A stretch of DNA of 64,000 bases, taken from contig OX597815.1 of the NCBI GenBank assembly GCA_951406725.2, positions 126,294,001 through 126,358,000 on the forward strand. Direction: 5' to 3'. Positions 57,941 through 63,596 of this stretch are shown piece by piece (the first letter of the stretch is position 1; each line of letters starts with the position of its first letter). The stretch is from Octopus vulgaris (lineage: Eukaryota). The notes beneath the pieces were generated by a model. It saw only the letters and a list, made by a program, of their open reading frames with translations, was not told the origin of the DNA and searched no databases. Both the position numbers and the translations under genes were made by a program.

Positions 57941-58060
57941 CTCTCTCTCTCTCTCTCTCCCTTTCTCACTCTCTCCTCTCCCTTTCTCTCTTTCTCTCTC
58001 GCTCCCCCTCTCTCCCCTTCTCTCTTGCTTTCTCTCTCACTCTGCCTCTCTCTCTCTCTG
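57941..58060 (+). repeat. Degenerate (TC)n tract, left copy of a ~120-bp flanking duplication
   Basis: It has the same interruptions (CCCTTTCTCACTC, CTCGCTCCCCC, CTCTTGCTTTC, CTCTGCCTC) as 63479-63596. Confidence 0.9.
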
Positions 58061-58210
58061 ATCGGTCGTGTTATTCTTTGCTCCGCAGTGAAAGATTGTT
58101 TTTGTGCTGAAAAGTTTGAAAATTTGCTATTTTGGTCGTCGAGGCCACTTCTTTTCTGCTGTTGCAGCAGAGCTCTGCCGTTCTTTCCCCCTTGTTTTAA
58201 GGGGGAAGCG

Positions 58211-59452
58211 ATGAAAAACATGAATTTGCCACCAATCTCCTCCGAGTCGGAGGAAAACGTTGAAAATTTGTTTGAAGGCATGAAGGCGAAAATGTGGGAG
58301 GAGGAAGGTAAAAGTAAAGAGACGTCTCACGCGCTCGTTACAAAAGCAGACGGCAATATGTCTGGCGAAGCTACTACACAACAGGAAAAATCAAAAATAA
58401 ATTTTGCGAGTGCAGCAACTCGCCCCTGTGAAAACATCGTTATTAACAAAGAAGGATTAAAGAAGTACCAAAGTTTATTAAAAAAAGAAGGTGATAATGT
58501 GAAGTTGTTCCCTCCCAGTGAATTAATTTACGCGACGGAGAGAAAACTGTCATATACAAGACATATAATGTGAAAAATAAGAAAATTGACTTCGTGCAGA
58601 GAGAAGCCATAGAAAAATGTTTGAGGCCGATATGGCAACAAACTACTTATATAACAAGGGGTAGTCGCTTCGGCACGGTAGAAGTGCGTTTCCCTAGCGA
58701 AGAAAAAGCTAGGAAACATTAAACAAGAACGTTGAAGTCGGAAGACGTAGTTCTTCTACCTTTTTATTTAGGGATGAGAACTTCCAGAATAACGGTCACA
58801 GACATTCCTCCCGAAATAAATGTGGACTTTATAATAGCAGCGATTCTCTTAGGCAAAGAGGAAGAAATTGCCATTCTTCAGTCTAAGAGATATCGCCCCA
58901 TGATTTGGTATGGACAAGACTTAGAGCTTGTGATCCAAGCAAACCCCTCGGACTTGGAAAAATTGCCAAGCTCCCTCACCATTGGAGATAATACCAGCTT
59001 GATGGTAATAGTCGAGGGAAGAAAACCTAGGTGTTATAAATGTGGCGAGAAAGGCCACATAAGGTCGAGCTGCAAGAAGACAGCCAAAGAAAATACTGCA
59101 GAGGCAAGCACGACGCCGAAAACAACTACACCGCTAGAAATAGCAGCCACGTCGCGCACCCCAATTGCCGAAGTTCAGCCGACAACGGGAGAAAACAACG
59201 ACAACAACAACAACAACATCCAGGAGTGGGTCACCATAGAACCTTCAAAAAGAAGACGGAAACGGAAAAATCCACCCTCTTCGGATACACAGGACTATAC
59301 TCCGAGACAGACAAGCACACCCACACCCACAAATACAGTCGCAAACACACACGTAGCCAAAAAAACACACACACTGGAAAAAGCACACACAAACACACAC
59401 ACACACCTACCACAAGCACACGCACACCTACAAACACCCACGATTCTACAAG

Positions 59453-59484
<32 letters not shown>

Positions 59485-59754
59485 CACCCCTCCACAATCA
59501 CCTCACAAAAAAAAAGAAAAACCCTCACGGCGATAAATAAAAACAATAACCCATTAAGAGAAAAAATTATTTTAATGAAATCGGAGAAAAAATATATCGT
59601 AACAGATATAAATAGTACTATTTCCGAAAATGTCGAATTTTATACAATAGATAACGCTGATTATTTTGAAATTAAAAAAAATTTTGCGGAGGACGTCGGC
59701 CCGTTACAGATGAAATTTTCAAGCCATCTGTACAGGCAATTCGCAAAAAACTGA
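58211..59754 (+). pseudogene. ORF1 (gag-like nucleic-acid-binding protein), disrupted
   Basis: ATG at 58211, frameshift near 58545 and stop at 58720. Zinc knuckle CYKCGEKGHIRSSC and a Thr/His-rich low-complexity tail. Confidence 0.85.
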
Positions 59755-59847
59755 CCTCGCAAAACAAAACGCTCACAGACAGAAAAGAGGAGAGTGAAAC
59801 TACACCCTCTCTTCCGTTAAAACAGTAAGTTTTAAACTTTCGACTAA

Positions 59848-62800
59848 TTTTTCACATTCTCGTTTAAACTCGGTTGTATAAATATTCGCGGCCTGGGGTC
59901 GTATTGGAAGCAAGGCTACCTCCTTAACGACCTTAGGTCGCATCGTTTGGATGTAGTGGTAATTACCGAATCCAGACTGAGTGGGCTGCAGGCCTTTACG
60001 CCCCTTCTAAACGGCTACGAGAAATACGTTTCTCCCTGTCGACCTGGAGGGGGCGGAGGAGTGGCAGTGCTAGTCAGGAAAAACCTGGATTTAGAGATTA
60101 GAACTGTCTTTATAGATCCGGAAGGCAGGTTGATCGTTTGGGATGTGACGCACAGCAGTGGTAAAGTGTTCAGGCTGGTCGCTGTCTATGCTCCCTGCGA
60201 AGGAAAAGCCGGACAGAAAGAGTATTTCAAAAGCCTAGAGAATTTTCTTGGCACGTCGAACACGTTAGTATTGCTAGGTGACTTCAACATAATTTGCGAT
60301 GCAAGCGTAGATTATGTTGGCTCGAGAAAGAATAGGAGGGGATTACCTCACCTCAATGATATGCTAAGTCGTTTCGAATTAACAGATAGATTCAGAGTGG
60401 TCCACCCAGACACTCCAGCGTGGACCTGGGCAAGAAACGACGGGTCGTCCAGATCTTACATTGATAGAATCATAACTAGAAGGAAAGACAAGAAAATACT
60501 TAGCTGTCCACAACACCATATCGTCAGCTACATTGATCACAAATTAGTGACCAGTACGCTCGACATAGATAGCATGTGTAGACAAGGTACCGGTTACTGG
60601 AACTAAACAAGTCACTATTGGACTGTGAAGCCTACAGGAATCGGATTAAACAATTAGTAATGAGGACGTTAACCGGATCCATTATCAACAACAAATGGTG
60701 GTACGCCCTGAAAAGAGCCATCAAATTTGAGTCAATTAGGTTTAGCAAAGAACTAGCTAGTGCTAGAAACAAAGTAGAAAAGGAACTAGTTAAGGCAATA
60801 GAGGAGGCAATGAGGTCAGGCAGTGCATCGAAAGTGTTAGCGGCGAGGTTAGCACTCGACCAACATCTCAAAGCTAAACATGAAGGGTGCATTGTCAGGG
60901 CTAAGATCCGTGCAATGAGACAGGAAGGGATCAACGCAGCCGGATGGGCCCGGGTGGTAGAGGGCCAGCGTAGCAACAACTCAACCATTCGATCCTTGAC
61001 GGGCCCAAATGGTCGATTAGTAAACGAACCCGAGGAGATGTGCAAGGTGTTTCATTATCATTTCGCCCAGCTATTCGGGAGGAGCGGCGAGCTGGAGCGC
61101 GGGGAGAAGCTCGCAGACTTCCTGGCCGGTTCGCCGCGTCTATCGGGGCCGGACGCGGAATCTTGTGAGGCGCCGATCACAGCCAAAGAAGTCGAGGATA
61201 TGTTGGCAGACTGCGGCGGGGACAAATCGCCGGGACTTGATGGTCTGCCTTACGAACTCTATAGTAGCATGCCAGACTTGTTTGGGGCACCTACTTTCAT
61301 GCGTGTACACCAACTGGCAGCAGAACGGGAAAATTCCTAAGTCTGTGAGCCGAGGGGTGGTAGCGCTGTTAAGAAAGGACCCAAACAAGGGGGATTTAAT
61401 TGATAATTTTCGGCCCATCACTCTGCTTAACGCAGAGTTGAATATTTTGGCCAAGGTCTTAGCAAAAAGGTTAGCGCGGGTCGTGGGTGAACTTGTTGGC
61501 GAGGCGCAAACTTGCGCCATCCCTGGAAGGACCATCCACGACAATCTCCACTTTCTACGCTATGCCTTAGAAAGGGTAAATAGGATTCCTGGCAAGGGTG
61601 GGGCTATGGTCCACTTGGACCAATCGAATGCGTTAGATAGGGTGGACCATCAGTATCTGGCGGCGGTCCTCGCGGCGGCTGGCTTCGGCCCGCCCTTCCG
61701 CGGATGGATCATCGCTTTATACAGCAACATCGAATCGGTAGTTCGGATAAATGGTTTCCTTTCGGAGCCGTTCAGCATTGAACGTTCGGTACGTCAAGGG
61801 TGTCCTCTCTCCCTGCTACTCTACGTTTTGGCCCTCGATCCGTTGCTGAGGAGGTTGAAAACTATGAGAGGCACTCCGCAAGATCTAGGGTGCGGAAAGT
61901 CAGCTTCGGCGTATGCGGACGACATCACCGTCATCGTTTCCCGAGTCGAGCACCTAAGTGGGTGGGTGAGGCCTTAAGGGACTACGAAGCGGTGGCAGGA
62001 GCGAAAGTCAACCGGGATAAATCGGTCGCCTTGCAACTCGGCACCTGGAGGGGCAAGTCGATGTCTTCCGACAGCGTCGTAGGACGTTGGACGGAAGGAC
62101 CGGTGAAAATGCTTAGAATCTGGTTAGGTTCAGATCTCCAGATAGAGAAGAACTGGAGCGAGGTGGCGAGAAAGGTGGCTCTCCTAACTCAGACATGGTC
62201 TGAGCGGAAGCTGTCCTTGAAAGGGAGGGCGGAGGTTGCAGAGGTGTTTATCGCCTCTGTAATCACTTACCGCCTGACCGTCGTGCCTTGCCCCGATTCG
62301 TGGCTGAACAAACTGGAACGCATGCTCTTTCGCTTTTTGTGGAGGGGCAGCAGACCTCTTGTAAGGCGCTCTATTTGCTGCCAAAAGCCACTGAAGGGTG
62401 AGTTAGGGATGCCGTGGCTAAAAATGCGCAGACATGCGTTCAGGCTTAGGCACCTCTAGATTTACCTGGACGGTGAGCAGGTGTGGTCTCCGTTCGTCAA
62501 GCTGTTATTTCCACAGTTCATATCGTTTAACGAACTGAACCCATGGATCAAGTGTAGACCGAGGCTAGGCATGTGGCATGCAGAGTGCTATCAGGCACTC
62601 GTGCTTCTCTCCCAGTCGGGCAACGCCGGTGGCGGGGCTACTACCTCGTTCTTCTATAGAGGGTTAGTAGAGTTTAAGTGTGACGACGTCCTAGGAGAAA
62701 CTCTGGGCTTCGACGAAAATCAACTGGCCAGCCTGTTCCAAAGAACATTCAGTCCGGGGCCTATGGATAATTACCAAAAGTCCCTGGCCTGGCAATGTTA

Positions 62801-63248
62801 CAGAGGAGCTTTACCGGTTCGAGATAAACTCTTTAGACATGGGTGTGCACTTTCGCCGGTTTGTGCAAGATGTGAGAGGGACAGTGAAACTGTCCTGCAC
62901 GCGATTGTGCAATGCCCCAAGGTGACTGAACTCTGGGCTTATGTAGAACACCTGCTGTCGCATTCGAGAAGAGTACAACTGTCGAGCGAATCTGTAATTA
63001 AGATAGTTCCGCCGACCTCCCTGAATAGTTTTCTGTCGATAGTTGCTATGGCGAAAGAAGTAGTGTGGAAGACGAGAGTAAAAGGAATTGCAACAGGCAT
63101 GTTTATCTCCAGTCTCGAGCTAATCGACTTTTTCGTTTTCCACATGAAACGGAAAATAAGGCTGGAGAAGAAATGCCTGTCGCAAAGTGTGTTTCGTAAA
63201 AGATGGAAGTCTATAGCAAGTATGTTGCGAGTGAAAGAACCTGTTTAA
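59848..63248 (+). pseudogene. ORF2 (AP endonuclease + reverse transcriptase + zinc finger), disrupted
   Basis: INIRG, VYAP, LGDFN, SYIDR, KSPGLDGLP, FRPITLLN, RQGCPLS, YADD (61912-61923) and CARCERDSETVLHAIVQC. Frameshifts at about 60603, 61290 and 61955, and a stop at 62457. Confidence 0.92.
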
Positions 63249-63478
63249 GTGGGAATGTTGAAAAGGAGAAATCAAAGTCTTCAGTGTGAATATGTGGTTT
63301 GTGGGGTCAACCACGCCCTCCGCTTCATTTTTTGTTAATCACTCATTCTCATTTAATTGTATATATTTTAATTGTTTGTTTATTCATATGTTTTGTCTCA
63401 TTCGATACCCTGACCCCAACGTTTGTTTTGTCCCCTCTTTTTCTCAACCTTATGGTGAATAAAGAAATACTCTCTCCC

Positions 63479-63596
63479 TCTCTCTCTCTCTCTCTCCCTT
63501 TCTCACTCTCTCCTCTCCTTTTCTCTCTTTCTCTCTCGCTCCCCCCTCTCCCCTTCTCTCTTGCTTTCTCTCTCACTCTCTGCCTCTCTCTCTCTG
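63479..63596 (+). repeat. Degenerate (TC)n tract, right copy of the flanking duplication
   Basis: Matches 57941-58060 apart from a few substitutions and dinucleotide slips. Confidence 0.9.

Follow-up and report, generated by a model that had tools for sequence, protein, structure and literature searches.

Pyrimidine microsatellites are the insertion sites of several LINE families of the Tx1 clade, namely Kibi, whose target is (TC)n, and Koshi, both from teleost fish, and the crocodilian (TTCC)n and (TTTC)n families (PMC4494074, PMC3812793). Very long target-site duplications (TSDs) are also on record, measuring 126 bp in R9 of bdelloid rotifers, which is rDNA-specific according to the title of the cited paper, and a median of 900 bp in Dualen-4b of Chlamydomonas (PMC9977147, PMC6895275). 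For human L1, TSDs of more than 100 bp were reported for up to 10% of the events in HeLa cells and for 57–91% of those in NER-deficient cells (PMC5223499). Zorro3, an L1-clade element of Candida albicans, carries its targeted simple repeat on both flanks, with contributions from the target, the duplication and the RNA tail, and a 5′ UTR repeat is described as the point from which its cDNA jumps to the top strand (PMC3510499). Of the steps of LINE integration, the choosing and joining of the second strand is considered the one understood least (PMC6895275).

Structure of the element

A two-ORF L1/Tx1-type retrotransposon of 5,409 bp (58061–63469) was found between two interrupted TC tracts in the 64,000-nucleotide stretch of DNA analysed, the whole of which is called the window. 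Its parts are as follows.

57941–58059, + strand: candidate target-site duplication, 5′ copy (left interrupted TC tract)
58060, + strand: ambiguous G at the 5′ junction (read from the sequence, with a possible cap origin by precedent)
58061–58210, + strand: 5′ UTR, 150 nt, with a putative complete 5′ end
58211–59754, + strand: ORF1, broken
59848–63248, + strand: ORF2, with APE endonuclease, reverse transcriptase and C-terminal zf-RVT
63249–63469, + strand: 3′ UTR, 221 nt, T-rich, without poly(A)
63470–63477, + strand: CT-rich 8 nt without a left counterpart in the alignment, a putative read-through tail from the donor locus
63478–63595, + strand: candidate target-site duplication, 3′ copy (right interrupted TC tract)
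63596–63609, + strand: GCC(TC)5T block, present in the alignment on the right side only, probably the unduplicated remainder of the original tract

G58060 is ambiguous and may be the last duplicated base, the first base of the element or a reverse-transcribed cap, for which there is precedent (PMC2912911). The copy is dead, with four frameshifts and two stops in total. ORF1 has one frameshift near 58520–58545 and one stop at 58720–58722, and its CCHC zinc knuckle lies at about 59029–59079. ORF2 has frameshifts near 60603, 61285 and 61950 and a stop at 62457–62459, keeps YADD in its reverse transcriptase, and contains no ATG upstream of the endonuclease motif. The window was found to contain neither another copy of the element nor any fragment of it, and the flanks matched nothing there except one (TAC)n run.

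Classification and relatives

Pfam searches matched ORF2 to Exo_endo_phos (1.1e-18), RVT_1 (1.1e-22) and zf-RVT (1.2e-9) and ORF1 to zf-CCHC (8.5e-5), Transposase_22 being absent. An RRM in ORF1 is suggested by an Atlas lead only, which scored under 0.9; a Type I ORF1, with RRM and CCHC, fits Tx1 but is not unique to it (PMC5203782). The best matches of the window endonuclease were L1 endonuclease chains, and an intact relative (P0006) matched L1 ORF2 in the PDB at 5e-68 and the best R2-type entry at 8e-21, among matches that held no full-length entry from other clades. With APE, reverse transcriptase and zf-RVT in an ORF2 that is nearer to L1 than to R2, the L1/Tx1-type assignment made in the initial annotation was upheld. 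The cephalopod lineage proposed there also stood, as the nearest named relatives are cephalopod proteins: the window copy fell into a group (support 1.0) of unnamed proteins and proteins with cephalopod labels, apart from two fish-labelled matches, in trees made up of unlabelled or host-labelled proteins, with no Kibi or labelled Tx1 reference among them. Membership of the element in Kibi is conjectural.

The closest long relative was P0004, and a word-index search, which is weak evidence, found no longer homologue of the endonuclease piece. Scanning of genome contigs with P0004 gave close relatives in none of 31 stretches, and scanning with alignment A1 gave 41 loci. The UTRs and flanks of the window copy had nothing in common with these 41 loci, and its tract matched only the GA repeats of one of them, L039. 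An snRNA, tRNA or rRNA target was considered and rejected, the 7 Rfam matches in 54000–64000 all being sub-threshold and none lying in the element or the tracts.

Most of the 41 loci (L001–L037 and L041) belong to a sister family arranged in head-to-tail arrays, whose units measure about 6.4 kb and share 99% identity. This family is 50–54% identical to the window copy over the reverse transcriptase piece, and its ORF1s are 29–30% identical to that of the window across about 178 aa. Its units terminate at AATAAA without poly(A), and its candidate duplication does not exceed about 17 nt following AATAAA (two 5′-truncated junction types). L039 is a distant relative, 43% identical to the window element and outside the supported clade, that lies in a U1 snRNA gene. 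It has an A8 tail, after which target sequence is repeated over 163 bp in its flank, and a whole U1 gene is left upstream.

The 3′ end of the window copy reads AATAAA (63458–63463), GAAATA and then CT repeats with no A-run, which confirms that the element passes into TC repeats without poly(A), as first described. This is ordinary and no peculiarity of the window copy, because an A-run of at least 6 was seen in 0 of 46 sister-family junction reads.

The interrupted TC tracts

The tracts aligned over 116 columns (57941–58057 with 63478–63595) with one C/T mismatch and gaps of 1 nt and 2 nt (CT), the left tract having one additional CT unit ahead of G58060. The irregular TC tract is thus present on both sides of the element with its interruptions, as originally noted, and this flanking duplication does far exceed the 10–20 bp usual for APE LINEs (PMC6895275). 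Two details beyond the initial annotation are the 8 nt (63470–63477) before the duplicated part of the right tract and the GCC(TC)5T (63596–63609) after it. The tract is 95% pyrimidine. At the opening of its left copy stands the longest stretch of alternating CT (20 nt, from 57940) and at the close the second longest (14 nt, 58046–58059); none of the nine runs between them exceeds 8 nt, and the longest perfect mirror arm in this copy is 9 nt. In both tracts nine CT units precede the first interruption, and the left copy begins exactly at the start of the tract. A short outer duplication was sought beyond both tracts and none was found. Like a barcode, the interruptions expose the stagger; the same duplication in pure (TC)n would be unreadable.

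Low-complexity tracts align readily, but the 94-nt interrupted core scored 169 against the right tract, and the best of 21 further pyrimidine tracts detected in the window scored 89. None of 12,000 tracts simulated with Markov orders 2–5 (3,000 each, trained on both TC tracts) reached 169, the maximum being 132, and chance likeness of two TC microsatellites is therefore excluded. The lesions of the copy include frameshifts of one base, of a kind to which long-read assemblies can give rise; however, the two tracts differ from each other at three sites, the window contains no N, and the repeat stops at both biological termini of the element. An origin by assembly artefact or chance similarity is thus highly improbable.

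The two stops in 4,890 coding nt correspond to about 1% divergence (95% range 0.1–4%), at which 2.1–2.7 substitutions are predicted between the tract copies and one was observed (P of one or fewer, 0.24–0.38). A raw count of altered invariant ORF2 columns (12 of 131) gives about 4% per site, a value at which a single substitution between the tracts is improbable (P 0.001). Intact close relatives also deviate at invariant ORF2 columns (7 of 138 and 10 of 141), so the excess in the window copy is small.

Origin of the duplicated tract

We consider that the tracts are probably a true target-site duplication of about 118–120 bp, made in one insertion of an apparently full-length RNA. The repeat brackets the element exactly, from 150 nt before the ORF1 ATG to 14 nt past AATAAA, and the CT runs that hold the ends of the duplication are the two longest ones, of 20 and 14 nt. 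The reconstructed empty site looks ordinary, because a similar degenerate TC tract of 115 bp lies elsewhere in the window (55376–55490). The sister-family ends without poly(A), the 163-bp repeat of L039, the large TSDs of L1 in HeLa cells and the two-sided repeats of Zorro3 also speak for this reading, as do the single substitution between the tract copies and the lack of an outer duplication. Against this, agreement of the far end with a long run carries little weight by itself, since a hand count puts about 25 of the 114 bases downstream in runs of this kind; the position of the left copy at the tract start and the nine shared CT units would also be expected of a repeat carried by the element; one copy is known; and the two 5′-truncated junction types of the sister family keep only about 17 nt as candidate duplication.

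Such a carried repeat would derive from a donor copy or array with the block at both ends, whose RNA spanned both blocks and was inserted into a short pure (CT)n with a short, unreadable duplication. The head-to-tail arrays of the sister family could yield terminally redundant transcripts of this kind, and the 163-bp repeat of L039 might likewise persist by co-transcription from U1. This origin nevertheless requires read-through of at least 120 nt both 5′ and 3′ in a single RNA. After the right block come GCC(TC)5T and unique DNA, with no element 5′ end there, and the left block lacks the 8-nt tail. TC or GA runs of 6 units were also absent from the sister-family units (0 of 38 array loci), and a prior long duplication would still be needed as the starting point. 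We regard it as quite unlikely.

Polypyrimidine tracts are able to adopt non-B structures, and a slightly less likely alternative again is that the element was picked up while a break in the tract was being mended (by synthesis-dependent or replication-fork repair), or that the tract was copied later, in which case the duplication would be uninformative about the endonuclease of the family. The pyrimidine richness of the tract and the microhomology provided by repeats at both junctions are compatible with capture, and it has been proposed that large L1 duplications in repair-deficient cells arise from unrelated nicks lying far apart (PMC5223499). The 3′ end is, however, complete to AATAAA and both ORFs are full-length, as in canonical insertions, and the longest perfect mirror arm of the left tract is only 9 nt; later copying would need to have placed the tract exactly at the 5′ end of the element. 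With this 9-nt arm, a triplex-DNA trigger is left as speculation.

For a true target-site duplication, the element, its breaks, the duplication with both ends and the absence of poly(A) are read directly, and from these we infer the nicks, priming, joining and gap filling. The pre-insertion site would have been one interrupted TC tract of about 134 bp, entered through target-primed reverse transcription. The first nick would have fallen on the GA strand, in the longest CT run at the 5′ end of the tract. An RNA that lacked poly(A) but continued for a few nt beyond AATAAA, taking in CU repeats from the donor site, may have paired through these repeats with the nicked GA strand, leaving the 8 extra nt behind. 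About 120 bp downstream, where the next long CT run lies, the end of the cDNA would then have become joined to the top strand. Annealing is the most likely means, following a distant nick or with resolution by replication or repair. Filling of both gaps would have copied the tract, and the element would have decayed afterwards. The end of the duplication may have been fixed by annealing or repair and not by the distant second endonuclease nick that the initial annotation proposed.

Target preference

Perfect TC or GA runs of at least 5 units occupy 188 of 58,200 flanking bases, and the one known copy lies in a TC tract. A preference of the family for TC is about as likely as not, or slightly more so. 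A single copy cannot show that the family makes long duplications routinely, and it is doubtful that they are its rule. One could propose a cephalopod Tx1-type family that targets (TC)n and routinely anneals its 5′ junction at the next long repeat run, at least 100 bp away, doubling the microsatellite, with L039 as a second case; this is a conjecture we consider unlikely. If true, long target-restoring duplications would be a recurrent strategy of APE-only Tx1 elements, overlooked because pure repeats conceal duplication length.

Comparison with known systems

The window element resembles the Kibi, Koshi and crocodilian families as a putative Tx1-group LINE within a pyrimidine microsatellite; those families are vertebrate and their targeting is shown across many copies, whereas here there is one copy of cephalopod type. 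The sister array family and L039 share its organization of two ORFs, with a CCHC ORF1 and an APE–reverse transcriptase–zinc finger ORF2. The sister family differs in its head-to-tail arrangement and short candidate duplication, and L039 is similar in its long flanking repeat (163 bp) but not in its A8 tail and U1 location.

R9 and Dualen-4b are alike in their very long target-site duplications. R9 uses a restriction-like endonuclease, whereas that of the window element is APE, and no rRNA match was found in 54000–64000; Dualen has two endonucleases, whereas the window element has APE only. In both R9 and Dualen the long duplication is a family trait, whereas in the window family it has been measured in one copy. 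Human L1 is likewise an APE-type LINE with occasional TSDs above 100 bp, but it ends in poly(A), its ORF1 is of the Transposase_22 type, and its large-TSD events come from cultured cells.

Taken as a single dead copy, the element adds another rare long duplication to those above 100 bp already known from R9, Dualen and occasional L1 events. Should other copies repeat the pattern, annealing and a second nick could be set against each other in a natural, countable test, cephalopod genomes would have a route by which microsatellites grow, and a TC-targeting endonuclease would be known from an invertebrate. Zorro3 shares the target simple repeat on both sides, but its duplication length is unreadable because the repeat is poly(A), whereas the interrupted tract described here reads out the length that pure microsatellites conceal.

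Anatomy of the element and its flanking tracts

The element spans 58061-63469 (5,409 bp) and contains two reading frames.

ORF1: 58211-59754, with a CCHC knuckle
ORF2: 59848-63248, with APE endonuclease, RT, and zf-RVT domains

This copy is dead, because ORF1 carries one frameshift and one stop, and ORF2 carries three frameshifts and one stop. At the 3' end, AATAAA (63458-63463) is followed by GAAATA and then by CT repeats, with no poly(A) after the AATAAA, in agreement with the initial annotation. ORF1 also contains an in-frame CA-rich repeat (59384-59487) encoding a His/Thr-rich stretch. 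No ATG precedes the endonuclease motif of ORF2 (59848-59870), the first Met lying ~170 residues in, for which a lost start codon and non-AUG or coupled translation are alternative explanations.

The same annotation had placed an interrupted TC tract on both flanks of the element, and this was upheld by alignment of the left (57941-58057) and right (63478-63595) tracts, which differ over 116 aligned columns by a single substitution and two gaps (1 nt and 2 nt). The 94-nt interrupted core scored 169 against the right tract, compared with a top score of 89 for the window's remaining pyrimidine tracts (n = 21) and a maximum of 132 for simulated tracts (n = 12,000). The left and right tracts are copies of each other, and an artefact is highly improbable. 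The right tract is preceded by 8 extra nt (63470-63477), and a GCC(TC)5T block lies behind it at 63596-63609.

The tracts as a probable target-site duplication

The repeat flanks the element exactly at both ends, and no outer duplication was found beyond the two TC tracts. If the element and one tract copy are removed, one degenerate tract of ~134 bp remains, which resembles the 115-bp degenerate tract at 55376-55490. Beside this reconstruction, a terminal block borne by the element itself is considered unlikely.

Two coding stops in 4,890 nt correspond to ~1% divergence (0.1-4%), which predicts 2.1-2.7 substitutions between the tract copies; one was observed (P = 0.24-0.38). By a second clock, 12 of 131 invariant ORF2 columns were altered, or ~4% per site if taken raw, a rate that would make one tract substitution unlikely (P = 0.001). 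Intact close relatives also differ at invariant columns (7 of 138 and 10 of 141), so most of these 12 changes are lineage background. A repair-driven origin, or later copying of one tract from the other, is judged improbable.

The alternating CT run in which the duplication starts is the longest (20 nt), the one in which it ends is the second longest (14 nt), and each of the nine CT runs in between has at most 8 nt. These ends fit annealing or repeat-directed nicking, a match that is weak by itself at the far end because, by a hand count, long runs take up ~25 of the 114 downstream bases. Perfect TC/GA runs of at least five units account for 188 of 58,200 flanking bases (AT, 1,522; AC, 844), and insertion in a TC tract, as a single after-the-fact case, hints at TC preference. 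The feature is real, and a decayed L1/Tx1-type copy is most likely flanked here by a rare, long target-site duplication, the length of which is legible because the target tract was interrupted.

A single target-primed insertion is probably the best reading of the element and its tracts, and its steps may be proposed from the observed anatomy. The first nick would fall on the GA strand within the first CT run, where a tail-less RNA reading into donor CU repeats would prime and would be the source of the 8 extra nt. The cDNA end would be joined to the top strand ~120 bp further on, where the following long CT run lies, and fill-in would be the last step. Formation of the 5' junction by annealing is an established route (PMC4245944), and the APE endonuclease of R1Bm is able to recognize each strand's site separately (PMC1919474).

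Classification and relatives

In the PDB, an intact relative matched L1 ORF2 (5e-68) much more closely than R2-type proteins (8e-21). ORF1 showed 29-30% identity over ~178 aa to two sister-family ORF1s, and an ORF1 of the CCHC type has been said to fit the Tx1 clade (PMC5203782). The top RT matches were an unnamed protein (71%) and one from Argonauta hians (67%), and an Octopus sinensis RT fragment (P0192) was 66% identical over half of the query. This fragment, of the element's lineage, carries the source label "secreted RxLR effector protein 78-like," apparently a misannotation.

In a midpoint-rooted ORF2 tree of 54 hand-picked sequences, built on 1,104 of 1,665 columns, the window copy clustered with the unnamed and Argonauta hians proteins (support 1.0), and the sister of this group was a clade in which the array family described below is joined by a cuttlefish-labelled protein (support 1.0). 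An RT-only tree, for which 147 of 246 sequences were left after a 75% identity filter, agreed (supports 0.997 and 0.955). On these grounds the host is likely to be a cephalopod, probably an octopod. Labelled Tx1L, Kibi, Koshi, Keno, or Dewa sequences are absent from the trees, so the putative assignment to Tx1 is based on architecture. For Octopus vulgaris, 13 recently active L1-Tx1 families and 421 insertions have already been counted (PMC13282606), and the available text of that source states nothing of their insertion targets.

Related elements in prokaryotic genome bins

When prokaryotic genome bins were scanned, eukaryote-type elements of this kind were recovered at 41 loci, which presumably represent host DNA that had been co-binned. 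Of these loci, 38 belong to arrays in which ~6.4-kb units of a sister family follow one another head to tail.

L001-L037 and L041: array loci, contigs CAXXMW010000002-18
L039: 3036-10170 of contig CBDHHR010000099.1, an intact two-ORF L1/Tx1-type element

The array loci are eukaryote-type DNA within a bacterial genome bin, and no telomere-type repeat was seen in them. Units are 99% identical within a locus; the family comprises several subfamilies with differing 5' regions and a common 3' block, some units being 5'-truncated. The 3' anchor motif occurred 46 times across the 41 loci (34 distinct strings, with overlapping loci double-counting some junctions), and none of the 46 junctions had an A-run of at least 6 within 40 nt after AATAAA, which makes the missing tail a lineage trait. 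At two 5'-truncated junction types (L022 and L009/L015), ~17 nt separate AATAAA from the truncated unit. This stretch represents the genuine 3' end or, alternatively, a duplication of the ordinary kind. The lack of a long spacer at either junction type speaks against long duplications as a fixed trait of the lineage.

Three further prokaryotic bins (L038, L039, and L040) contain eukaryote-type LINE sequence, again presumably co-binned; L038 and L040 are short contigs. L039, with 43% RT identity to the window copy and a position outside the supported clade, is inserted ~35 nt into a U1 snRNA gene and ends in AATAAA and an A8 tail. Its 163-bp direct repeat (3070-3232 and 10008-10170; 162 of 163 identical) leaves a whole U1 plus 33 nt upstream and a 5'-clipped U1 downstream. 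L039 shows the layout of the window copy in another APE-only element, a carried copy being possible. A broader reading, in which APE-only Tx1 elements repeatedly produce long duplications that restore the target, is conceivable but doubtful.

Other repeats in the window

Two open frames at 30556-31575, with only a weak Lig_C match in Pfam, may resemble an hAT-derived transposase. The frame at 23582-24313, without a Pfam match, presumably resembles the end of a Tc1/mariner transposase. Palindromic MITE-like repeats were seen at 23078-23612, 27469-27670, and 16110-16249, the first having dispersed relatives near 5823-6162 and 52303-52571.

Comparison with known systems

Each ingredient of the window feature has precedent, and family-level claims rest on one copy. 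The literature searched, which took in few subscription journals and probably no Repbase Reports, described neither a Tx1 family that targets TC in cephalopods nor a duplication of >100 bp made by any Tx1 element. The usual duplication of APE LINEs is 10-20 bp (PMC6895275), and for full-length L1 a study that covered 5-30 bp only found the peak at 14-16 bp (PMC2912911); L1 duplications of >100 bp make up to 10% of HeLa events (PMC5223499). Longer duplications are described for R9 (126 bp) and Dualen-4b (median 900 bp) (PMC9977147), and the 163-bp repeat of L039, an APE-only element, is reminiscent of the long R9 duplication. The window element behaves like a microsatellite-inserting Tx1 element, such as Kibi, which targets (TC)n in fish, or the crocodilian families with a preference for (TTCC)n or (TTTC)n (PMC4494074, PMC3812793). 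The closest working analogue is Zorro3, which has simple-repeat flanks of mixed origin (PMC3510499).
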